Of a stretch of DNA of 64,000 nt, positions 1,249 to 41,772 are shown one piece after another. Made by a program: the position numbers and the translations under genes. The number at the start of each line of letters is the position of its first letter. Position 1 is the stretch's first letter. The stretch is from an uncultured Candidatus Poseidoniales archaeon. Its GTDB lineage: Archaea > Thermoplasmatota > Poseidoniia > Poseidoniales > Thalassarchaeaceae. Under the pieces are notes generated by a model. That model saw nothing but the letters and a program-made list of their open reading frames with translations. It did not search any database and was not told the DNA's origin. The DNA is taken from contig CACKMK010000002.1 of the NCBI GenBank assembly GCA_902601345.1, positions 43,571 through 107,570 of the forward strand. Reading direction: 5' to 3'.

Positions 1249-2751
1249 GTGAGTGCGTACGAAGAATTACTGACGAGACTGAAAGATATCGACTTAATTA
1301 GACAAATAGGGAGCCTATTGAGTTGGGATCAGGAGGTGTTGATGCCTCCGAAGGCGGCTCCTCTGAGGGCAGAGCAACTTGCTTGGATTTCGAAGACTGC
1401 ACATGAGAGGCTAACTGATGACAGAGTAGGAGAAATATTGGATGAAATTGAGTCCAATGATGATATGGATGTAATTAAATCGGCGAATATCAGGCTTGCA
1501 AGGGAGGCTTTTGACAGGGCAACGAAGTTGCCTACAGAGTTCGTTGAAGAGATGGCGAAGCATCGTTCCAAGGCTCTGATTTCTTGGACTGAGGCGAGGG
1601 AGAAGGACGATTTCTCAATTTTCCGTGATGACCTCGAAATAGCGATTAGACATGCGAGGATGAAGGCCGATTTCTTCGGATATGATGGTCTGAGATACGA
1701 TGCGCTGCTCGATCTTTACGAAAGCGGTCTAACCGTGGAAAGACTCGACCCACTGTTTTCGGGTCTTAGGGAAAATGTGACACCCCTGATCAAGGAAGTA
1801 GTGGAAAGGGACGAAGGGCCGGATTTCTCATGGGTTACAGAAAGCACATGGAGTCAGAAAGCACAGGAAGAGCTGAGCCAAAGTGTTTCTGAGGCAATAG
1901 GTTTCGACTTCGGGGCAGGAAGGAGGGATCTGTCCACTCACCCATTCTGTGGGGGGCCTAATCCCGATGATGTAAGGTGGACAACTCGCTATAGTGAAGA
2001 GGAGCCGTTCGGATCCCTGTTTGGTTCAATGCATGAAACAGGTCACGGTACGTACGAACAAGGTAGACCTAGGGATTTGGACTTCCAACCGGCAGGAAAG
2101 GCAAACGGTCTTGGGATTCACGAGAGTCAAAGTCGCCTCTGGGAGAATCAGGTAGGGAGATCCCGGGAATTTTGTGAATGGTCCATCCCGTTGTGGAGGA
2201 AGTTCTTCCCAGAAAATATGGACGGAGTCAGCGCCGAGCAACTATGGCAGGCAGTTAATTTGGTGAAGCCTGGTTTAATCAGGGTTGATGCTGATGAGGC
2301 CACATACAATCTACACATCATGATCAGGTACGAGATCGAAAAGCAACTTATTGCTGGCGAAATAGATGTAGATGATCTTCCTGATGCTTGGGACGAAATG
2401 TACCATGAATACTTGGGAATTAGAGCTCCTTCCCGTACACTGGGAGTTCTTCAGGATATTCACTGGTCAATGGGTGCAATCGGCTACTTCCCAACGTACA
2501 CTCTCGGGAATCTTTACGCTGCTCAACTGCTCGAGTCAGCCAGAAAAGATCTCCCAGAACACGATACTCAGATTAGGGAGGGGGACTTCTCACCACTACT
2601 CAATTGGATGAGGGACAATGTCCACTCGAGGGGAAGCGTGCTGGAGCCAGCGGAGCTAATCAAGGAAGCAACTGGTCAGGACCCTTCCCCTGATGCTTTC
2701 ATAAGATATCTTAGCTCAAAGGTTGAGAGGCTTTACGGAGTTAGTGCTTAG
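1249..2751 (+). CDS. M32 family metallocarboxypeptidase (carboxypeptidase Taq-like)
   Basis: 500 aa. HETGHGTYEQG is an HExxH zinc motif in the M32 context. DIHWSMGAIGYFPTYTLGNLYAAQL is the M32 signature region. Confidence 0.85.
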   Translation: MSAYEELLTRLKDIDLIRQIGSLLSWDQEVLMPPKAAPLRAEQLAWISKTAHERLTDDRVGEILDEIESNDDMDVIKSANIRLAREAFDRATKLPTEFVEEMAKHRSKALISWTEAREKDDFSIFRDDLEIAIRHARMKADFFGYDGLRYDALLDLYESGLTVERLDPLFSGLRENVTPLIKEVVERDEGPDFSWVTESTWSQKAQEELSQSVSEAIGFDFGAGRRDLSTHPFCGGPNPDDVRWTTRYSEEEPFGSLFGSMHETGHGTYEQGRPRDLDFQPAGKANGLGIHESQSRLWENQVGRSREFCEWSIPLWRKFFPENMDGVSAEQLWQAVNLVKPGLIRVDADEATYNLHIMIRYEIEKQLIAGEIDVDDLPDAWDEMYHEYLGIRAPSRTLGVLQDIHWSMGAIGYFPTYTLGNLYAAQLLESARKDLPEHDTQIREGDFSPLLNWMRDNVHSRGSVLEPAELIKEATGQDPSPDAFIRYLSSKVERLYGVSA

Positions 2752-2767
2752 AAGTGGTGAGGTGCAC

Positions 2768-3853
2768 ATGACAGTATTCAGTCTGACTGACTACTCCTCC
2801 CTGGTCAGGGAGATTGGAGGGGAGTGTGCCTTCGTTAGAGTCTCAGGGAAATTACTGGTGTCGGGCTCCAAATCAGGAGAGGTTGCCTGCTGGGATTTGG
2901 ACAACGGTAAAGAGATGTGGAGATCAAAGTTCGAGGGTCCTTGTTCTAATGCGGATTCGAATAAAGATTTCCTGTTCTTCACAGAGTCAGATAGAGTTCA
3001 TTCAATTGTGTTGTCCTCTGGAGATGAGGCTTGGTGCGTGGAACTGGAGGGTTCTAGCGATCTTGTTAGAGTTTCTTCAGAGTGCGTTTGGGTGACTTCG
3101 TCTGTTTACAACTTCGAGATTCAGGACTATTCAGAGGGTTCGGTATGGAAAATTGACTATTCAGGAAAAGTTAGGTGGAAGGGTGACACGATAGGAAGAG
3201 CCTGGTCTCTATCTGATTTTCAAGGACAAGCAATCATGGGACTAAGTAGGCCTAAGTGTGGATATGCCATTGCATCCGAAACAGGAATTGAATATCTTGA
3301 GTTGGAAGAAAATAAGCCGATAACTGCTGGATGTAAATTAGATGGAGGAGGGATAGTTTTCGGGCATAGCAATGGATCGGTAACTGAGATATATGGAGAA
3401 GTCTGCTCTACCGTCAGCGTAGGAGACTCTGCGATCCGCGCGGTGGATTGCGGGACTAGTTGGGTTGCAGGGCTCGATTCTGGAGTCGTTTCAACCGGCG
3501 AATCCCTAGGATCATGGAAAATAGAGTCTTTTGGCTCCATTGATGTAGTTTCATTCGGTCCTTCGTTGGACGATGTCGCAGGCATATGGTACTCATCTTG
3601 GGACGGTAAAGGAGGAGTTTTCCTAGTAGACTCTTCATTTGGGAGTCTGCAGCTCGAGCTCTCTCACGAATCTAGGATAGTAACCTGTTTCGCTACTGAG
3701 CATACGATTTGCTTTGGAGATATTAGCGGATGCATACATGTAATCGAGAAGGAGGTTCTCCGGCGTCGTTTCGGAAGGCTCCCAGAAGGAGATATCGAAT
3801 CTGGAAGAGAATCGGAGCTTAGAAAGAAAATACGTGCACTGCGAGGTGCCTAA
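2768..3853 (+). CDS. PQQ-like beta-propeller repeat protein
   Basis: Repeated motifs SGKLLVSGSKSGEVACWDLDNGKEMW and SGDEAWCVELEGS are typical of PQQ/WD-like propeller blades. Start moved to the internal Met (MTVFS...) to avoid a 29-nt overlap with the upstream gene. Confidence 0.45.
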   Translation: MTVFSLTDYSSLVREIGGECAFVRVSGKLLVSGSKSGEVACWDLDNGKEMWRSKFEGPCSNADSNKDFLFFTESDRVHSIVLSSGDEAWCVELEGSSDLVRVSSECVWVTSSVYNFEIQDYSEGSVWKIDYSGKVRWKGDTIGRAWSLSDFQGQAIMGLSRPKCGYAIASETGIEYLELEENKPITAGCKLDGGGIVFGHSNGSVTEIYGEVCSTVSVGDSAIRAVDCGTSWVAGLDSGVVSTGESLGSWKIESFGSIDVVSFGPSLDDVAGIWYSSWDGKGGVFLVDSSFGSLQLELSHESRIVTCFATEHTICFGDISGCIHVIEKEVLRRRFGRLPEGDIESGRESELRKKIRALRGA

Positions 3854-3889
3854 TTTACAGTGGAAAAACACCCCAAAAACCCCCTATTT

Positions 3890-4530
3890 CCAGTGAACTG
3901 CTCCATTATTGACGAAATGTTTATGTGCCACCCATAACCCTGTGTTTCTTGCCGCTCCGGGGGAGTGGTGTGAGGGCGCTTCGGCGCGACTCGCGGGCCA
4001 CAAAAACCGAGCCCCGAAACCGGGGCGGTAAAACCGAAATCCGAAAGGAAATCGGGGAATGGCTGGAGCGTCTGTGGACGCAAAGGCCGCGGCGAATAAA
4101 TCGGACGAACTGGAGGTAACGAAAGGGAGAGCGAGATAGGAGCTGAAGAGATACACATGCGTAGGGTGAAGAGAATGAACCTGGGTCATGTAGGTGGGGA
4201 ACGAGGCAGAGATAACCGGACGCAAGGAAGGGGAAGGAAACCAAGGGAAACACCGGGCAACAAGGGCGGGGAGACCCGTGGAGAAGCCAGTATCGAGACG
4301 TGAAAGGAAAAGCGGAGACGAAGTACCAGAAGCGGATGCGGCGAGTGAAAGGGAGATCTATTACGAGTCGGAAAATGACAAAGGAAGAGCATGAAGTTCC
4401 GGAGTCGTCTACCCGGGGGAACCCGGGCCTTCGGGCCCGGGGGACACCCGGACCCTGCGGAGTTAACAGGGGGGGAAGCTCCCCCATGTGCTGAACCCCC
4501 TGTTGCTCCCACCTAATATCGGCCCAGAAA
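3890..4530. ncRNA. Candidate large structured non-coding RNA (unclassified), strand undetermined
   Basis: Roughly 700 nt lie between convergent genes with no credible ORF. The only ORFs are overlapping, low-complexity P/R/S-rich frames on both strands. The plus strand is strongly purine-rich and GC-rich. Perfect hairpins: gcgc-ttcg-gcgc (3976-3987), gccccg-aaac-cggggc (4011-4026), ccga..cc-gaaa-gg..tcgg, cccgggcc-ttcg-ggcccggg (4422-4441), gggggg-aagc-tccccc (~4470-4486). UUCG and GNRA tetraloops are hallmarks of stable RNA. No RNase P (GGAAAGUCCGG / ACAGAAnCCGGCUUA) or obvious SRP signature found by eye. Confidence 0.3.
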
Positions 4531-4558: not shown

Positions 4559-6160
4559 TTATTCCATTGGACCAGTCATATCACCAGGTCTGACCCATTC
4601 TTCGAACTGCTGCTCATTCACCAGGTCCAGTTGGATAGCACTTTGCCTTAGAGTAAGTCCCTTCTCATGGGCATTCTTAGCGATTTTAGCTGCATTGTCG
4701 TATCCGATGTGTGGATTCAGAGCGGTAACTAGCATCAATGAGTTCTCGAGGTGCTCGGCAATCTTTGCTTCGTTTGCGCTGAGCCCGAGTATGCAATTTT
4801 CAGAGAAAGATACACAGCTATCTGAAAGCAGCCTTGTGCTATGCAGGAGATTATGGATCATCAACGGCTTGAAAACGTTCAGTTCGAAGTTCCCCTGACT
4901 TCCACCGATGGAGATAGCGACGTGGTTCCCCATTACTTGGCAACAGACCATAGTCATGGCCTCAGACTGTGTTGGATTGACCTTGCCAGGCATTATACTA
5001 GAGCCTGGTTCATTCGCGGGTAGAGAGAGTTCTCCGAAACCACATCTAGGTCCGGATCCAAGCCATCTCACATCATTGGCTATCTTCATCAATGAGGCTG
5101 AAAGTGTATTCAAAGCGCCAGAAGCTGCTACGATGGCATCGTGAGCTGCTAGTTGTGCAAACTTATTCTCTGCACTGATGAAAGGTAGGCCTGTTTTTTC
5201 TGAAATCTTACCAGCGACTATCTCTGCGAAATCGGGATGAGTATTGAGGCCGGTTCCAACTGCAGTCCCTCCTAGTGCTAGTTCGTACAAATCGTTCAGA
5301 GCCGTTTGAATTCTAATCAAGTCGGCATCCAACATCGACACGTAAGCACCAAACTCCTGTCCAAGTGTTAGCGGAACGGCATCCATGAGGTGGGTTCTGC
5401 CGATTTTGACTATGTCAGAGAACTCTTCCTCCTTCTCCGCTAAAGAATGTCGAAGTTTCAGTACTGATGGAATTAGTCGATGTTGTATTTCCTCAGCTGC
5501 AGCGATGTGCATTGCGGTTGGAAACGTATCATTACTAGACTGCGCGCGGTTTACATGATCATTAGGGTGTACCGGAGATTTACTGCCCAGCTTTCCTCCG
5601 GATATCTCAATTGCCCTATTCGCAACAACCTCGTTTGCATTCATGTTCGTCTGAGTCCCAGAGCCCGTCTGCCAAATCCTGAGGGGGAAATGGGAGTCTA
5701 GAACCCCAGAAATCACCTCTTCACATGTTTCCGTGATCAGTTTTCCAATGTCATCTTCCAGTACTCCGAGCTTGACATTTGTCTCTGCTGCTGCCTGCTT
5801 TAGGATTCCGAATGCACGAATCACAGATCTAGGCATTCTATCTTCTCCTATGTCGAAGTTGATCAGAGACCTTGCTGTCTGTGCCCCATAATATCTATCA
5901 GCAGGAACTTCTATGTCCCCCATTGTATCGGTCTCAACCCTTACTTTGAGATTGGTCTTGTTCGGTTTTCGAGACTTTTTCTCTCCAGAGTTCGGCTTGT
6001 TGATAACGGCTCCAGAAAGGGAGCTTTCAATCATCTTGGAAATAGTGGCAGATCTTCCCTCTCCTCTGCCCTTACCAACCCTAGCGTCCAATCTTCTAGC
6101 AATATCCTCAGGAATACTGACTGAAATTATTCTACGATCACCGACCCGATGTTTCGCCAT
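4559..6160 (-). CDS. fumC: Class II fumarate hydratase (FumC) with in-frame N-terminal ribbon-helix-helix (CopG/NikR-like) domain
   Basis: 533 aa. [20 protein letters not shown] matches the fumarase/aspartase signature GSSxMPxKxN. [20 protein letters not shown] is FumC-like. The canonical FumC N-terminus [19 protein letters not shown] begins at residue 80 (ATG at 5923-5921). Residues 9-48 ([40 protein letters not shown]) fit an RHH fold. Next comes a Lys-rich linker, with no stop codon in between. Confidence 0.8.
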
Positions 6161-6211
6161 AATAATACTATTAATAACTTATTAATAAATATATTTACTA
6201 CAGTCTAATCA

Positions 6212-6694
6212 TCATACTCTCTCTACACTGATTATCTTCTGAGGTGACACCGGTCTATCTCCGGGACGAGTCTCTGTGGACTCAATCTTCCTAACTACTT
6301 CCATCCCCTTAGCAACTTCGCCGAATACAGCATGGTTTCCATCGAGCCAGGGAGTGGGTACAGTAGTAAGAAAGAACTGGGAACCCCCCGTATCTCGTCC
6401 TGCGTTTGCCATAGAGAATATCCCTGGCCTGTCGTGTTTTTTCGATAATGCAGATGTCTCACATGGTATCTTCCAGCCGGGACCTCCGGTACCGGCTCTC
6501 CCATTGTTTGCATCTCTTGAATGTGGACATCCTCCTTGGATCATGAAATCTTTGATTATTCTGTGGAAGTGTAGGCCATCATAGAAGCCGTCGTCTACTA
6601 ATTTAAGGAAGTTGTTTGTTGTCTCTGGGCATTCCTCTGTGTACAATTGAATTTCTATCTCTCCCGCACTTGTTGTCATTCTTACGTATGTCAT
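6212..6694 (-). CDS. Peptidyl-prolyl cis-trans isomerase, cyclophilin type
   Basis: HFHRIIKDFMIQGG and GGSQFFLTTVPTPWLDGNHAVFGEV are cyclophilin signatures. Start placed at the internal Met (MTYVRMTTSAGEIEIQLY). Confidence 0.8.
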   Translation of the reverse strand: MTYVRMTTSAGEIEIQLYTEECPETTNNFLKLVDDGFYDGLHFHRIIKDFMIQGGCPHSRDANNGRAGTGGPGWKIPCETSALSKKHDRPGIFSMANAGRDTGGSQFFLTTVPTPWLDGNHAVFGEVAKGMEVVRKIESTETRPGDRPVSPQKIISVERV

Positions 6695-6739
6695 ATTGTA
6701 TGAGTAGAAAAACAGGTTCAATATGGTATTGTATTGCAG

Positions 6740-7138
6740 CTATGCAACTGTTGAGCCCGGCATAGTTCCTTCTGGGGCCTCCAACAGTCTGACTGTACCA
6801 TCCGCATCTAAAGCACCCAAGACCAGGAATTGGGAAACGAAGCCCGTGGGTAGTGTCTTCTCTCCTAGATTAATAGCCGCTACTACCATCCTTCCTATCA
6901 ATTGTGAACGGGAGTAGTTTGTAATCTGAGCCGAGCTCCAAAGCCTTCCAACTATGGGTCCAAAATCAACTCTAATCTTGTAAGATGGCTTTCTCATCTC
7001 TGGGAATTCCTGGACATCATCAATTATTCCGGCCCTCATATCCACAGAAAGAAATTCTCCGATTCCGATATACTCCTTTCTCTCAAGTTTGGATGGGTGG
7101 TATGGCAGACTTTCTGAATCAATGTCGTGCTGTCCCAT
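6740..7138 (-). CDS. tRNA-binding domain protein (CsaA / Myf-domain like)
   Basis: 132 aa. SVDMRAGIIDDVQEFPEMRKP...KIRVDFGP...QLIGRMVVAAINL matches the OB-fold tRNA-binding (CsaA/EMAP) domain pattern. Confidence 0.55.
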   Translation of the reverse strand: MGQHDIDSESLPYHPSKLERKEYIGIGEFLSVDMRAGIIDDVQEFPEMRKPSYKIRVDFGPIVGRLWSSAQITNYSRSQLIGRMVVAAINLGEKTLPTGFVSQFLVLGALDADGTVRLLEAPEGTMPGSTVA

Positions 7139-7142
7139 CTCT

Positions 7143-7727
7143 TCAACTCGCGATATCGGATTTAACGGTGAGAGGAATTAAGTTTATTCCAGCCTCCTCG
7201 AAGGCTTCCAATCCTCCCTCTTGTCTATCTAGTATAGTGATACAACAGACTACATCACAACCCATCTGATTGAGTGTTCTTGCCGCCTTCAAAGCGGACC
7301 CCCCGGTAGTTGTGACGTCCTCAAGAAGAACTACTCTATTCCCCGGCTGTAAACTAGACCCTTCTATCCCGGGAGGGTTTCCTGTCTTTCTCCCACCCCT
7401 GCCCTTTGGTTCCTTTCTGACAATAAAGCCTCTCAATGAGGATCCCTGTGCTGCCTTAGCGATTGTAATTCCTGTTAATGGTACAGCTCCTAATTCGAGG
7501 CCTCCAACTGCATCTACCTCCCCAATCTTCTTGATTTGATCATGAATTAGGATTCCAAGAAGATGAGCGCATTCCGGGTCCATCATAACTGGTTTCATGT
7601 CAAAGAAGTGCTTACTCTTTCTTCCACTGGCTAATGTGAAGGCCTCTTCCTCCGAGAAAAGATAAGCAAGATCGCGTATTCTGTAAATTAGTATTTCTCG
7701 GGCCTGTTCCACTGATGTTGAGGTCAT
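7143..7727 (-). CDS. pyrE: Orotate phosphoribosyltransferase
   Basis: 194 aa. VVLLEDVTTTGGSALKAARTL is the PRPP-binding motif of type I PRTases. Length and layout fit OPRTase. Confidence 0.75.
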   Translation of the reverse strand: MTSTSVEQAREILIYRIRDLAYLFSEEEAFTLASGRKSKHFFDMKPVMMDPECAHLLGILIHDQIKKIGEVDAVGGLELGAVPLTGITIAKAAQGSSLRGFIVRKEPKGRGGRKTGNPPGIEGSSLQPGNRVVLLEDVTTTGGSALKAARTLNQMGCDVVCCITILDRQEGGLEAFEEAGINLIPLTVKSDIAS

Positions 7728-7855
7728 TCTACCTGATATGGCCTTGACGTAATGTCATGAAGATTGCCTTCATTGAGGTGAATTTCGAGCAAGATGACGG
7801 TGAATGTTCTTGGACGGCCTCTTCGGAGTGGTTAGTGTTGTCGCGAGGGGAAGGC

Positions 7856-10800
7856 ATGTCCAAGAACATCAGAGCCGAGGAAATAGATGTAAAGAGGCTC
7901 GAGATTGAGCGTTCGGATTATTACGAATCTCTGGATAAGGAAATAGAGGAAGCGTATACAATCGCAGCGGAGGCAAAAAAGAAGGGTCTGGACTTTTCTG
8001 AGTCAGTTGAGATACCTAGAGCGTCGGATTTGGCTAGTAGAACCGAGAAGCTCCTTGAAGACCCGTACCTCTATGTTGATCCGGATCAAAGGGCTAAGCA
8101 GCCGCTGAAAATTGAGGGATATCTGAGGGAGCTGCTGCAGAAGCACGACAGGGAAAGTGCTGCAATAATGATCGCGATTCACGTTACAAAGGAGATGCAT
8201 TCTGCGACCGGTGACAGAAGGAGAGCTATTGATTCTGGACTAAGAGTGGGGTTGGCGGTCCTCACTGAGGCTGTCCTGGTGGCCCCATTGGATGGTATAG
8301 GCGAAGTCAGAATAATGAGCAACTCGGATGGATCTGAGTTTCTTTCAATTGATTTCTGCGGCCCCATCAGGGCTGCAGGGGGTACTGCTCAGGCTCTAGG
8401 TGTACTAATTGGTGACATTCTAAGAAGGGAAATAGGAGTGGGCAGATACATCCCAACTGTTCCCGAAGTAGAGAGGGTGAAAGAGGAGTTCGGGCTTTAT
8501 CGTGCGAATCTCCAGTTTAAGCCAGAACCAGAAGAGACAGACCTGATTGTCAACGAGTGCCCGGTGATGATCAACGGCGAAGAGACCGAGAGAATGGAGT
8601 GTGCGGGTTACAAGGAAGTTAGGAACATAGTGAATGACAATGGTTCTTTCAGAACCAGAGTAAGGGGAGGGGTGATGCTAGTAATCGCAGAGGGTCTATG
8701 CCTCAAGGCTCCAAAGATCCGCAGTCACACTGAGAGATTGGGGGTTCCGGGGTGGGATTTCATTTCCAAATTCGCTGATAAGAAGAAGGATGGAAAGTCG
8801 GAAACTACCGAATTGAAGAGTAGGGTTCTGGAAAAAGAAGGACGATACATGGAAGATGTGATTGCGGGCAGACCCGTTTTCGGAGAGCCGCGAGAACCCG
8901 GGGGCTTTAGGCTAAGATATGGTAGGAGTAGAGCTACAGGACTTGCAGCGGCTGGTCTGAATCCGATTACGATGGAAGCATTAGGAGGATTCCTATCAGT
9001 AGGGACTCAGATGAAGATCGAGGGGCCCGGGAAGGCCTGTGCAGTTACACCATGTGTGGACATTGATGGTCCAACCGTTCTACTGAGAAACGGGGAATTC
9101 GTTAGAGTAGGGAGTCAGGAGGAGTGGAAGAGGTGCGAGGGTGAATTGCTCTCGATATGGGATGCTGGGGAAATTCTACTTGGCTATGGGGAGTTTCTGG
9201 AGAATAACAAATCTCTTTCTCCATCCTCCTATTCTGTAGATTGGTGGTCGGTTGATCTTGCAGATTCTCTTGACTCGCATGAGAAAATAGAGTCTTTCGC
9301 TGAGATAATCGGAGTAAAAGTAGGGAAATTACCACCTGGAATGCCATTCAATGGAGCAATTAGCCGTGGAGGTGAATCTAGATTAGAGAGGTCTTTGAGG
9401 AAGAGGAGTTGGATTTCCTATCTCAAAAGTTTAGAGCTATCTTGGGATATGGTCAAAGAGATATGTGAGAGCTTTGGAACCGCTGTCCCCCCTCCATGGA
9501 ACCTCTGGTGGTCAGATTTGCCAATCCAGTTCCTACCTCCTTTAGCTAATGAAATTGAGTCTTATGGAAAAATCGAGGGTTCTTCCCTTAGGATAGGGAA
9601 GTCGGTGGAGGGATGGCCATACTCCTTCGATAAGGATTCAATTGGACTCGCAAATCCGATTCTTGGTGAGTGGCCACGTTGGACAGAAGTTTACCGCCAT
9701 GGATTAGTTAAGTCATCATTGATGACTCTAGGGCTTGTTCATCATCATGAGGGTTCTGATATCGTAATTCCTCTACATTGGGAGGGTCTGCTAGATGGTT
9801 TGGGTCTTGGAGAAGCAGACGGGAGAATCATAGTCAGGAGGGAGGTTGATTCACTGGTCTCGCAGACAGTAGGAAAGATTTCAGAAGTATTGAATTCCAA
9901 AAAAAAGGAAGACAGGGAGAAGAGAGCTGTTGACGACTATCTGGTTGAGAGGTCTCTTAGTTTGGTTCGAAAGGTCTCAGAGCTTCCTAGATGGGAAGAC
10001 TCGGTCCCCTGTAGAATCGGGGCTAGAATGGGTAGACCCGAGAAGTCCGGTGTTAGGGAAATGAGTCCGATGGTTCACTCGCTCTTCCCGATCGGAGAGA
10101 ATGGTGGACCTCAGAGGTTGGTTTCAGAAGCGTCCTCGAGAGGGGCTATCAGAGTAACAGTTGGTCCGAGGATCTGTCAAAAGTGCGGTAAGGAGACACC
10201 TCACGTAACTTGTCATCACCGACCGGACCCCAAGGAACCCATAGAGTGCGGAGGCAGGACCTTGGAAGGACCTTCAAGAAATAGGAGAGGTAGAAGGAAG
10301 GGAGAAATCACCGCAGTGAACCTAGGATCAATTCTGGAAGTAAAGCGGAGGAGGCTTGGTTTGGACAGGATTCCTAGCAAAATCAAGGCAGTGAAGGGAT
10401 TGGTCTCAAAGGATCAGGCTCCCGAGCAAATCGAGAAAGGGATACTGAGAGGATTACATGGTTTGTCTGTTTTCAGAGACGGAACAGCTAGATTCGACAT
10501 GAGTGACGTCCCAGTTACTCACTTCAGGCCATCAGAGATTGGTACGTCGTGGAAGAGGCTTGTTGAATTGGGATATACCCACGATCACGTTGGCGAGCCC
10601 CTGAAGAACGACGAACAACTACTGGAGTTGCTCCCCCAGGACTTCATTCCTTCCAGGTTAGCCTCCAATCATCTTCTTTCAACGTGCTCTTTCGTGGATG
10701 ATCTTTTGGTTAGATTCTACGAAATGCCACCATTCTACATAGCCAAGAACCCAGAAGACATTGTTGGGCATATCGCGATTGGGCTTGCGCCCCATACCTC

Positions 10801-11689
10801 AGGAGGTGTAGCGTGCCGAATAATCGGGTGGACCGATGCGTCTGCAGGCTACGCCCACCCGCTATTTCATGCTGCGAAGAGGCGTAACTGCGATGGGGAC
10901 GAGGATAGCATAATGATGCTGATGGATGGTCTACTGAATTTTACACAGACCATCCTGCCTGCGAACAGGGGAGGTAGAATGGATGCCCCCCTAGTTCTGA
11001 CGACTCGTCTTAATCCCAGCGAAATCGACAAGGAGGCTTTGAACGTGGATTGCGCCTGGTTTTACAGCAGAGATTTCTTTGAGTCTACTCTAGACCAGCC
11101 ACATCCAAAGGATATCAGGGACCTGATGGACATTGTAGAGGACCGTCTCGGGATGATTGGTGAAATTAGAGGCTACGGATGGACTCACGATTCTGGACCA
11201 TTGGACGCTGGTCCGGAGAATTCCTCATACAAGACGCTAGTCACGATGAAGGACAAGTTAGACAGACAACTGAGTCTAGGCAAGACTCTACGCCCAGTTG
11301 CTGCAGATAGAGTTGCCAAACAGGTAATCGAATCGCACTTCCTACCAGACATGAGGGGCAATCTGATGGCATACACTAGGCAGAAAATAAGATGTGTGAA
11401 GTGCGGCGAGTCATACCGGAGGATGCCGCTAGCGGGAAAGTGTATCAAGAATAAGCCGGCATCTGGTGGATTCTCAGGTGGAGAATTAGATTCGGGTTGC
11501 GGAGGGAACGTTGTACTGACTGTCTCTGAGGGCGCTGTTAGGAAGTACATCCAGATAACGGAGGACATCATGAATGAATTCGGAATAGATGACTACACAA
11601 AGCACAGGGTTGGGTGGATGTCTTCAAGCGTGGACTCGTTGTTCAATAATGACAAGGTTACCGTGATGACCCTTGAGGACTTCATCTAA
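7856..11689 (+). CDS. polC: DNA polymerase II (PolD) large subunit DP2
   Basis: ~1277 aa from the Met at 7856. N-terminus MSKNIRAEEIDVKRLEIERSDYYESLDKEIEEAYTIAAEAKKKGLDFSESVEIPRASDLASRTE aligns with the DP2 N-terminal pattern YFE.L..EI..AY.IA..A...G.D.S..VEIP.A.D.A.R.E. Cys clusters sit near the C-terminus (CQKCGKETPHVTCHH; CVKCGESYRRMPLAGKC). The track ORF starts 99 nt earlier, leaving only 29 bp to divergent pyrE. No intein-sized insertion. Confidence 0.9.
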   Translation: MSKNIRAEEIDVKRLEIERSDYYESLDKEIEEAYTIAAEAKKKGLDFSESVEIPRASDLASRTEKLLEDPYLYVDPDQRAKQPLKIEGYLRELLQKHDRESAAIMIAIHVTKEMHSATGDRRRAIDSGLRVGLAVLTEAVLVAPLDGIGEVRIMSNSDGSEFLSIDFCGPIRAAGGTAQALGVLIGDILRREIGVGRYIPTVPEVERVKEEFGLYRANLQFKPEPEETDLIVNECPVMINGEETERMECAGYKEVRNIVNDNGSFRTRVRGGVMLVIAEGLCLKAPKIRSHTERLGVPGWDFISKFADKKKDGKSETTELKSRVLEKEGRYMEDVIAGRPVFGEPREPGGFRLRYGRSRATGLAAAGLNPITMEALGGFLSVGTQMKIEGPGKACAVTPCVDIDGPTVLLRNGEFVRVGSQEEWKRCEGELLSIWDAGEILLGYGEFLENNKSLSPSSYSVDWWSVDLADSLDSHEKIESFAEIIGVKVGKLPPGMPFNGAISRGGESRLERSLRKRSWISYLKSLELSWDMVKEICESFGTAVPPPWNLWWSDLPIQFLPPLANEIESYGKIEGSSLRIGKSVEGWPYSFDKDSIGLANPILGEWPRWTEVYRHGLVKSSLMTLGLVHHHEGSDIVIPLHWEGLLDGLGLGEADGRIIVRREVDSLVSQTVGKISEVLNSKKKEDREKRAVDDYLVERSLSLVRKVSELPRWEDSVPCRIGARMGRPEKSGVREMSPMVHSLFPIGENGGPQRLVSEASSRGAIRVTVGPRICQKCGKETPHVTCHHRPDPKEPIECGGRTLEGPSRNRRGRRKGEITAVNLGSILEVKRRRLGLDRIPSKIKAVKGLVSKDQAPEQIEKGILRGLHGLSVFRDGTARFDMSDVPVTHFRPSEIGTSWKRLVELGYTHDHVGEPLKNDEQLLELLPQDFIPSRLASNHLLSTCSFVDDLLVRFYEMPPFYIAKNPEDIVGHIAIGLAPHTSGGVACRIIGWTDASAGYAHPLFHAAKRRNCDGDEDSIMMLMDGLLNFTQTILPANRGGRMDAPLVLTTRLNPSEIDKEALNVDCAWFYSRDFFESTLDQPHPKDIRDLMDIVEDRLGMIGEIRGYGWTHDSGPLDAGPENSSYKTLVTMKDKLDRQLSLGKTLRPVAADRVAKQVIESHFLPDMRGNLMAYTRQKIRCVKCGESYRRMPLAGKCIKNKPASGGFSGGELDSGCGGNVVLTVSEGAVRKYIQITEDIMNEFGIDDYTKHRVGWMSSSVDSLFNNDKVTVMTLEDFI

Positions 11690-41698: not shown

Positions 41699-41772
41699 TG
41701 GAGCACGAGCCGGGATTTGCACCCGGGTCCATGGATCTGCAGTCCATTGCATAGCTGCTCTGCCACTCGTGC
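41699..41772 (-). tRNA. tRNA-Cys (GCA), CCA encoded; atypical D- and T-loops
   Basis: Manual fold of the minus strand. Acceptor is GCACGAG/CTCGTGC (7 bp) with discriminator U and CCA. Anticodon stem ATGGA/TCCAT carries the loop CUGCAGA (U33, anticodon GCA, G37), identical to M. jannaschii tRNA-Cys. T-stem CCGGG/CCCGG has the loop UGCAAAU. D-arm is only ~3 bp and its loop has no GG. Confidence 0.65.

Follow-up and report, generated by a model that had tools for sequence, protein, structure and literature searches.

Few enzymes also serve as transcription factors, and the textbook example among those built with a ribbon-helix-helix (RHH) domain is PutA. RHH domains are obligate dimers whose two-stranded antiparallel sheet underlies sequence-specific operator binding. 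Here we analyse a 64,000-nucleotide stretch of DNA (hereafter the window) from an uncultured Candidatus Poseidoniales archaeon (GenBank assembly GCA_902601345.1, contig CACKMK010000002.1, positions 43,571 to 107,570), in which a single gene encodes a predicted RHH domain joined in frame to FumC, a class II fumarate hydratase (fumarase); we refer to the product as RHH-FumC. Poseidoniales, or Marine Group II (MGII), is a globally abundant, uncultured order of planktonic archaea, and to our knowledge the regulation of its genes is almost unexplored.

In the trifunctional PutA, the N-terminal RHH domain acts as an autogenous repressor of the protein's own regulon (PMC5293562). RHH-FumC resembles PutA in that RHH domain and enzyme share one polypeptide with the RHH domain at the N-terminus, but the enzymes are unrelated, that of PutA being a PRODH/P5CDH flavoenzyme and that of RHH-FumC a lyase of the fumarase/aspartase superfamily. 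PutA is, moreover, a bacterial protein (E. coli and other proteobacteria), is dimeric, reads GTTGCA sites and leaves the DNA when a redox-driven step takes it to the membrane, whereas RHH-FumC has an archaeal host, a presumably tetrameric core and a candidate operator that overlaps the TATA box. No homology of RHH-FumC to PutA itself was found.

By sequence, the closest RHH domain of solved structure is that of NikR, especially NikR from Pyrococcus horikoshii. Here too, an N-terminal RHH domain is followed by a C-terminal domain that makes the tetramer, with two RHH dimers reading two half-sites. The C-terminal part of NikR, however, is a small ACT-like metal-binding domain and not an enzyme, and its half-sites lie farther apart; no NikR-type ACT-like nickel-binding tetramerisation domain was found in RHH-FumC, where the C-terminal part is FumC. 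Arc, Mnt, CopG and MetJ are stand-alone repressors of 45–100 aa without an enzyme and achieve cooperativity via dimer-dimer contacts, in place of which RHH-FumC would have a covalently attached tetrameric core. Beyond the RHH family, BirA and NadR are trigger enzymes, single polypeptides that both catalyse a reaction and repress the genes of the cognate pathway, using winged-helix or helix-turn-helix DNA-binding domains rather than RHH, and we know of no other DNA-binding trigger enzyme of this sort that belongs to the tricarboxylic acid (TCA) cycle.

FumC enzymes are homotetramers with active sites shared between subunits. The canonical class II fumarases, such as E. coli FumC (1FUO), human FH and B. 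subtilis Fum-bc, are colinear with residues 73–533 of RHH-FumC, in which the signature loop is intact, and none of the 46 solved relatives covers residues 1–64. Human FH carries a mitochondrial presequence where RHH-FumC carries its RHH domain. Fum-bc takes part in the DNA-damage response of B. subtilis and co-localises with DNA, a moonlighting role that needs no DNA-binding domain (PMC5711358).

Results

One uninterrupted reading frame conserved across Poseidoniales

The sequence-only reading of the window had proposed that an RHH domain is fused in frame to a class II fumarase, and this is borne out by a single open reading frame (ORF) on the minus strand that contains no stop upstream of the fumarase part (Table 1), by profile matches, and by an enzyme moiety that appears intact. 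Since only about six in-frame codons separate the preceding stop codon from the ATG at 6160, we take this ATG as the start. The exact protein is already public, as part of a 384-member cluster at 90% identity.

The same extension is present throughout related archaeal genomes, and protein clusters in the hundreds carry it. In a scan of GTDB with one genome per species, 256 genomes matched and 80 loci were kept, 78 of them complete; the loci come from Thalassarchaeaceae (MGIIb), Poseidonia (MGIIa) and unclassified Poseidoniales, single-cell genomes included. All 78 complete loci encode the intact fusion, at 519–535 aa. Among the 120 best-scoring protein clusters (built at 90% identity; 72–97% identity to the query), 119 carry the same N-terminus, MAKHR.GDRRI.S.S.PE..., at a length of 529–545 aa. 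Over 81 loci, the mean pairwise differences within RHH codons 1–48 amount to 0.21, 0.13 and 0.61 at codon positions 1, 2 and 3, and 68% of the codon differences are synonymous; this codon-position pattern implies that the RHH region is translated and under purifying selection.

The likelihood is virtually negligible that RHH-FumC is an artefact, with an independent small RHH gene run together with fumC by a missing stop, a frameshift or a mis-called start. A few database entries do present an N-terminal piece of 80–150 aa apart from a separate FumC, as such an artefact would have it, but these split entries are adapter chimeras, contig ends or long-read frameshifts with broken neighbours, and the short 'stand-alone' matches are likewise contig-end fragments, Illumina-adapter chimeras or frameshifts. 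The missing stop that had been named as the way in which the fusion could fail is answered by hundreds of independent short-read assemblies, together with single-cell genomes, that carry the frame uninterrupted. The adapter-derived tails on the short matches read LSLIHI, CLLYTSPSPRDS and VSYTHLRAHET (clusters P0121-P0158); the frameshift-split genes (L081, L082) stem from pilon-polished long-read assemblies in which the neighbouring asparaginase, PEPCK and QRPTase genes are also broken; and some gene callers split RHH-FumC or begin it at an internal Met.

Word-index and exhaustive searches of 1.84 billion cluster representatives yielded no free-standing RHH ortholog, the exhaustive search returning pieces of fumC N-termini and two weak, unrelated stand-alone RHH proteins (E ~1e-4). 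We therefore rejected a recent fusion of a neighbouring small gene, since, apart from the two unrelated proteins, every match in these searches was a fragment, a frameshift or an adapter chimera of the fusion. Because the domain was found only as N-terminal pieces of fumC, the fusion appears to be old and essentially confined to Poseidoniales. That a conserved fusion exists is near certain.

A predicted NikR/CopG-type RHH domain precedes FumC

The fumarase part is well delimited. TIGR00979, the NCBIfam equivalog fumC_II, scores 768.5 bits over residues 73–529 against a cutoff of 664.75, and Pfam places Lyase_1 at residues 81–411 (E 7e-110) and FumaraseC_C at residues 477–530 (E 1.9e-23) of the 533-aa protein. 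Residues 73–532 align with residues 4–463 of E. coli FumC (1FUO) and residues 72–531 with residues 49–509 of human FH, colinearly with the solved FumC and FH structures at E values of 1e-196 to 1e-177, and the AlphaFold2 monomer model forms the first FumC β-hairpin at 73–78/81–86. With the signature loop GSSxMPxKxN found in 77 of the 78 complete loci, the fumarase part is predicted to be catalytically intact.

These boundaries revise the sequence-only reading, which had described an extension of 79 codons ahead of a canonical FumC start at Met80. Because TIGR00979, E. coli FumC and the AlphaFold2 hairpin all begin FumC at about residue 73, the extension comprises about 72 aa, namely a conserved domain (residues 1–49) and a variable linker (residues 50–72). 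Met80 was mistaken for the start: it is the conserved Met of a D-[ST]-M-G motif according to TIGR00979, AlphaFold2 and the structure alignment, and lies between the two strands of the first FumC β-hairpin. An unfused isoform initiated there, which had also been suggested, would miss the first conserved β-strand of FumC. Nor is a Lys-rich linker a feature of the family, since it is confined to the window sequence; ortholog linkers vary freely in sequence and are often acidic. AlphaFold2 models the linker as coil, with pLDDT below 50 at residues 26–60 and about 75 at residues 61–70.

Within the order Poseidoniales, the RHH domain falls into three divergent lineages, every one of them fused to FumC. 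Lineage 1, which includes the window, occurs in Thalassarchaeaceae and some Poseidonia and measures 529–535 aa (one copy 519 aa); lineage 2, with the N-terminus MAKHNVGDRRIVSVSIPEDVAQELDRWTGGGK..GRSAWIVQAIR, occurs in Candidatus Poseidoniaceae and measures 530–531 aa; lineage 3, from entries named 'Euryarchaeota archaeon' at source, measures 521 aa and has a shorter linker of about 12 aa. In hhalign, the lineage-1 profile (A1) matches the lineage-2/3 profile (A4) with a probability of 99.3. The lineage-3 gene at L125 2971-4533 has a Met near the canonical FumC start position (…EGIRMEADTMG).

We assign the N-terminal domain to the RHH family, as one of the NikR/CopG type. When N-termini were compared with the Pfam family RHH_1, 24 of 25 diverse orthologs matched, two of them above the gathering score of 20.5 (26.9 and 21.1 bits), while the window's own domain stayed below it. 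The NCBIfam search gave no match for the N-terminal region. In profile searches against the PDB, a profile of lineage 1 only returned nothing significant (NikR at E 0.9); with lineages 2 and 3 added, the RHH domain of P. horikoshii NikR was matched at E 2.2e-4, in an alignment that is ungapped from the strand through helix B, followed by H. pylori NikR (E 0.02) and then EndoAI antitoxin, HicB and E. coli NikR. The AlphaFold2 fold of the N-terminus consists of a strand, a helix at residues 18–29 and a helix at residues 36–49, that is, a β-α-α arrangement in about 45 residues.

Conservation in the domain points the same way. The strand R10-I11-I12-S13-V14-S15-I16-P17 shows the hydrophobic/polar alternation typical of RHH proteins; among orthologs, position 12 is I/L/M/V, position 13 S/T and position 14 V/I, and the pattern R-I-[IV]-S-[VI]-S-[IF]-P is kept across all three lineages. 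The helix B cap G35-R36-S37 is near-invariant and the basic N-terminal arm (K3 H4 R5 ... R9 R10) is conserved. In public databases, full-length entries are named only 'class II fumarate hydratase', and one fragment bears the NCBI label 'ribbon-helix-helix domain-containing protein, partial'.

A candidate operator overlaps the TATA-like box of fumC

Upstream inverted repeats had been raised as possible operators, and a conserved, fumC-specific candidate palindrome does lie on the promoter (Table 1). In the window it is perfect except for the unpaired central base. With the ATG as anchor, we aligned the sequences upstream of fumC from the 80 loci and from the window, and obtained 38 non-redundant promoters (<80% mutual identity), which share the block TTTATTAATAA[C/G]T[A/T]ATTAAT at -29 to -10, at a fixed distance from the ATG. 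The block carries ~1.6–2 bits of information per position over 19–20 nt, as against ~0 in the flanks and in the stretch between block and ATG. Whether searched for as a 19-mer, as ATTAAT-N5-ATTAAT or as single 10-bp boxes, the element has its sole match in the 64-kb window at fumC, and at up to two mismatches the 594 kb of related loci contain one match other than at the fumC promoter. The upstream neighbour changes between clades; the element remains with fumC.

In each of the three RHH lineages, the TATA-like box is equally far from the ATG, and no GGAGG-type Shine-Dalgarno sequence was found between this box and the fumC ATG, unlike at many other window genes, where a GGAGGT-like ribosome-binding site precedes the ATG by a few nucleotides. 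The fixed TATA–ATG distance together with the missing ribosome-binding site suggests a leaderless mRNA, and in that case the ATG of the RHH domain would be fixed as the translation start. Among the 49 ORFs of at least 200 aa in the window, only fumC has an AT-rich upstream region with a TATA-like box at -29; we therefore rejected the idea that the element is the usual MGII promoter. These features suggest that fumC is an unusual, leaderless and independently transcribed gene in this genome. A scan of the intergenic region for sigma-70 promoters and intrinsic terminators gave nothing, the models being bacterial and thus not relevant to archaea.

The other lineages vary this arrangement. Lineage 2 keeps the arms TTAATAAC (-30 to -22) and GTTATTAA with 12 bp more between them, the right arm reading GTTAWTAA at -10 to -3; both arms are conserved and the spacer is variable. 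Lineage 3 has TTTATTAATAAT at -29 and, upstream of it, a second conserved palindromic box, TTAATTAA, at 22 bp centre to centre. No simple relation between linker length and half-site spacing was found across the three lineages. In lineage 2 (L081 9960-10012; L083-L119) the dyad extends past TTAATAAC/GTTATTAA into the start codon region as TTTGCATTGA...TCATGGCAAA, and another stretch, GGAGGTTTATCAGTTCA, is conserved at about -76 to -60, perhaps as part of the promoter of a divergent gene.

Such dyads could also act in RNA, as an mRNA hairpin beside the start codon that controls translation. The lineage-2 arms, with pairing extended to the ATG, do fold to -17.2 kcal/mol (z -4.5), but the window lineage reaches only -4.2 kcal/mol (z -0.25) and lineage 3 only -2.9 kcal/mol (z +1.1). 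Lineage 1, moreover, conserves sequence rather than pairing, and the left arm is the TATA-like box at -29, which would be untranscribed if the mRNA is leaderless. We consider control by such a hairpin plausible for lineage 2 alone and very improbable overall.

Relatives without the RHH domain also lack the element

A natural control is provided by two loci (L130, L131) with an RHH-less fumC of 463 aa at 3001-4392. These genes cluster with lineage 3 at 90% identity and share its synteny of PEPCK, cyclophilin and asparaginase. The RHH-less FumC is 91% identical to lineage-3 FumC over 459 aa, and homology begins exactly at the FumC boundary, with residue 62 of the fused protein aligned to residue 4 of the unfused one. 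The upstream 60 nt of the RHH-less genes are 52% A+T (upstream region 2925-3000), and neither a box-like motif nor an AT-rich palindrome was found anywhere in the 7.4-kb RHH-less loci. The RHH domain and the AT-rich dyad element are thus present together or absent together. In both loci a divergent gene of 238 aa lies upstream of fumC, and their FumC protein sequence, also recorded on contigs of up to ~2.0 Mb, represents truly RHH-less genes with a different N-terminus, MGEFRIEADTMG (P0255, 463 aa).

This co-occurrence bears on two explanations that dispense with a specific operator. In one, the RHH domain no longer binds DNA and serves as a dimerisation, stability or protein-protein module, the element being bound by TBP/TFB or another factor. 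Low AlphaFold2 confidence for the domain would agree with this, as would the close relatives whose FumC works without it. Strong purifying selection on the presumed DNA-contacting arm, strand and GRS helix cap speaks against it, however, and the block, at 19–20 nt and symmetric, exceeds what a TATA box needs and vanishes together with the RHH domain, so that we regard a non-binding domain as quite unlikely.

In the other, the RHH domain would tether fumarase to the chromosome, non-specifically or at AT-rich DNA, so as to supply fumarate and malate locally, for instance during a DNA-damage response; on this view the conserved block upstream would amount to no more than a strong promoter. A class II fumarase does act in the DNA-damage response of B. 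subtilis and co-localises with DNA there (PMC5711358), and the basic N-terminal arm with a preference for AT-rich DNA could allow binding of low specificity. RHH domains, however, are sequence-specific operator binders; a tether predicts neither a fumC-specific dyad element nor its loss along with the RHH domain; the conserved synteny contains cyclophilin, asparaginase and a non-coding RNA but no DNA-repair genes; and the fumarases of B. subtilis, yeast and human fulfil their DNA-damage role without a DNA-binding domain. None of our results hints at the DNA-damage link that the sequence-only reading had drawn, and we hold this explanation, too, to be improbable.

A model for autoregulation by RHH-FumC

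We lean slightly towards the view that RHH-FumC is a bifunctional, autoregulatory trigger enzyme in the manner of PutA and NikR, one that limits the expression of its own gene. In such a scheme, the four N-terminal RHH units of the FumC homotetramer would pair into two RHH dimers, each of which would read one AT-rich box with its two-stranded β-sheet (RI-I/V-S-V/I-S-I/F-P) inserted in the major groove. The bound boxes would lie at the TATA box and immediately downstream of it in the apparently leaderless fumC promoter, where their occupancy would block recruitment of TBP/TFB or RNA polymerase; the fumarase level would thereby limit fumC transcription, and fumarate or malate might modulate the repression. 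We infer each of these steps, from dimer and tetramer assembly and binding to the palindrome to repression and the effect of a ligand. The sequence-only reading had already mentioned a self-regulating trigger enzyme, and this idea gains indirect support from the fumC-specific palindrome and from the co-absence of palindrome and RHH domain in relatives, with DNA binding itself remaining a prediction from sequence.

Several observations weigh against autoregulation. The window's own domain matches RHH_1 (residues 12–40) at only 16–17.2 bits, below the gathering score, and AlphaFold2 confidence in the monomer is low (pLDDT 64 when the domain is modelled by itself, <50 within the full-length protein), which is to be expected where one chain of an obligate dimer is modelled alone. 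Because of the overlap with the TATA box, some of the conservation of the element merely reflects that of a promoter, and in pure A/T sequence 7–8 of 8 symmetric pairs arise by chance in ~3.5% of cases. The joint loss of RHH domain and element in the RHH-less relatives may be a single replacement event, and their co-absence therefore counts as only one independent observation. Finally, the 64-kb window yielded no second site, and the related loci contain a single stray match.

This last point bears equally on the possibility that RHH-FumC is a one-component regulator of a wider regulon, such as TCA-cycle or C4-dicarboxylate genes, in which FumC would serve as fumarate/malate sensor and tetramerisation scaffold and the fumC promoter would be merely one among several targets. 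The layout is indeed NikR-like, with an N-terminal RHH domain on a C-terminal tetrameric ligand-binding core and with NikR as its closest solved RHH relative, and both strand and half-site are strictly conserved across the three lineages. The lack of further sites, in sequence that covers under a tenth of the genome per organism, argues only weakly against a wider regulon, with which our data are compatible. The catalytic motifs, however, are all preserved, and the enzyme has thus not decayed into a sensor. We judge a wider regulon unlikely.

An extension of the autoregulatory scheme, in which RHH-FumC is a flux sensor whose fumarate/malate occupancy or turnover alters how the two RHH dimers are arranged or how available they are, and with that the binding of the operator, is conceivable but doubtful.

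Other features of the window

The coordinates of the RHH-FumC gene, its domains and its upstream elements are collected in Table 1.

Table 1 Features of the RHH-FumC locus, in positions of the window
Feature	Position	Strand	Remarks
RHH-linker-FumC gene	4559..6160	-	single ORF, 533 codons + stop at 4559-4561
Predicted RHH domain, residues 1-49	6014..6160	-	arm, strand, helix A, helix B
Predicted RHH parts			basic N-terminal arm; strand ~9-16 (RRIISVSI); helix A 18-29; G35-R36-S37 cap; helix B 36-49
Inter-domain linker, residues 50-72	5945..6013	-	sequence-variable; semi-conserved R-[KS]-[PA] near its end
FumC (class II fumarate hydratase) domain, residues 73-533	4562..5944	-	TIGR00979, Pfam, structure alignment
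Fumarase signature loop, residues 386-395	4976..5005	-	invariant columns in 39-sequence alignment A2
Met80 codon	5921..5923	-	internal Met of conserved D-T-M-G motif
Intergenic region, 51 bp	6161..6211	.	cyclophilin stop codon to fumC start
Candidate operator, 17-bp palindrome ATTAATAA-G-TTATTAAT	6170..6186	.	-26 to -10 from ATG
Alternative reading of the operator: tandem 10-bp boxes TTATTAATAA and TTATTAATAG	6179-6188 and 6168-6177		11 bp apart
TATA-like box TTTATTAA	6182..6189	-	-29 to -22 from ATG; overlaps left half of palindrome

Directly before fumC lies a gene for a cyclophilin-type PPIase (6212-6721, minus strand), a pairing that also occurs in lineages 2 and 3; its assignment is based on Pro_isomerase Pfam matches on the equivalent gene in three related loci (L081, L082, L130). 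A small 132-aa ORF (6740-7138, minus strand) follows. From their translations alone, we tentatively take the 194-aa ORF at 7143-7727 (minus strand) to be an orotate phosphoribosyltransferase and the 1310-aa ORF at 7757-11689 (plus strand) to be the large subunit of DNA polymerase II (PolD); neighbours of this kind would fit an archaeal origin.

On the other side of the gene, an ORF-free region at ~3935-4515 (plus strand) lies between the ORF 2723..3853 and the 3' end of fumC, with which it is convergent. It is 55–60% GC, strongly purine-rich on the plus strand and always found just downstream of fumC in lineage-1 loci, with nucleotide conservation ranging from 96% down to ~70%. RNAalifold on 13 sequences predicts 150 pairs, of which 27 show compensatory double changes. 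Upstream stands a conserved TATA-like GAAATGTTTATG, and two loci contain variable GA-rich insertions. The region had no match in Rfam at the gathering score or at E<=1, and it is probably an unclassified structured RNA gene of ~580 nt, as judged from the predicted pairing; it may instead be a divergent RNase P RNA or signal recognition particle RNA. The sole Rfam match at the gathering score in the window is a tRNA gene at 41702-41772 (minus strand).

Discussion

A full-text literature search found no published description of an RHH-fumarase fusion, and the candidate paper on archaeal fusion proteins covers only class I fumarase subunits. We know of no TCA-cycle enzyme with a sequence-specific DNA-binding domain of its own, and found none in the searchable literature. 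RHH-bearing trigger enzymes as such are known; what is new here is the enzyme partner, the archaeal host, the candidate operator that overlaps the TATA box and the presumed tetrameric scaffold.

The fusion is a conserved trait of Poseidoniales. The RHH-less relatives and the variants in spacing are controls that already exist in nature, and the protein-operator pair, if true, would be the first defined regulator and operator for MGII, one whose study in vitro needs no culturing. If RHH-FumC were in addition a flux sensor, an enzyme would read the state of the TCA cycle directly at a promoter in abundant ocean archaea, and the lineages, with a common half-site and differing spacings and linkers, would be natural experiments on how a DNA-reading head is positioned.

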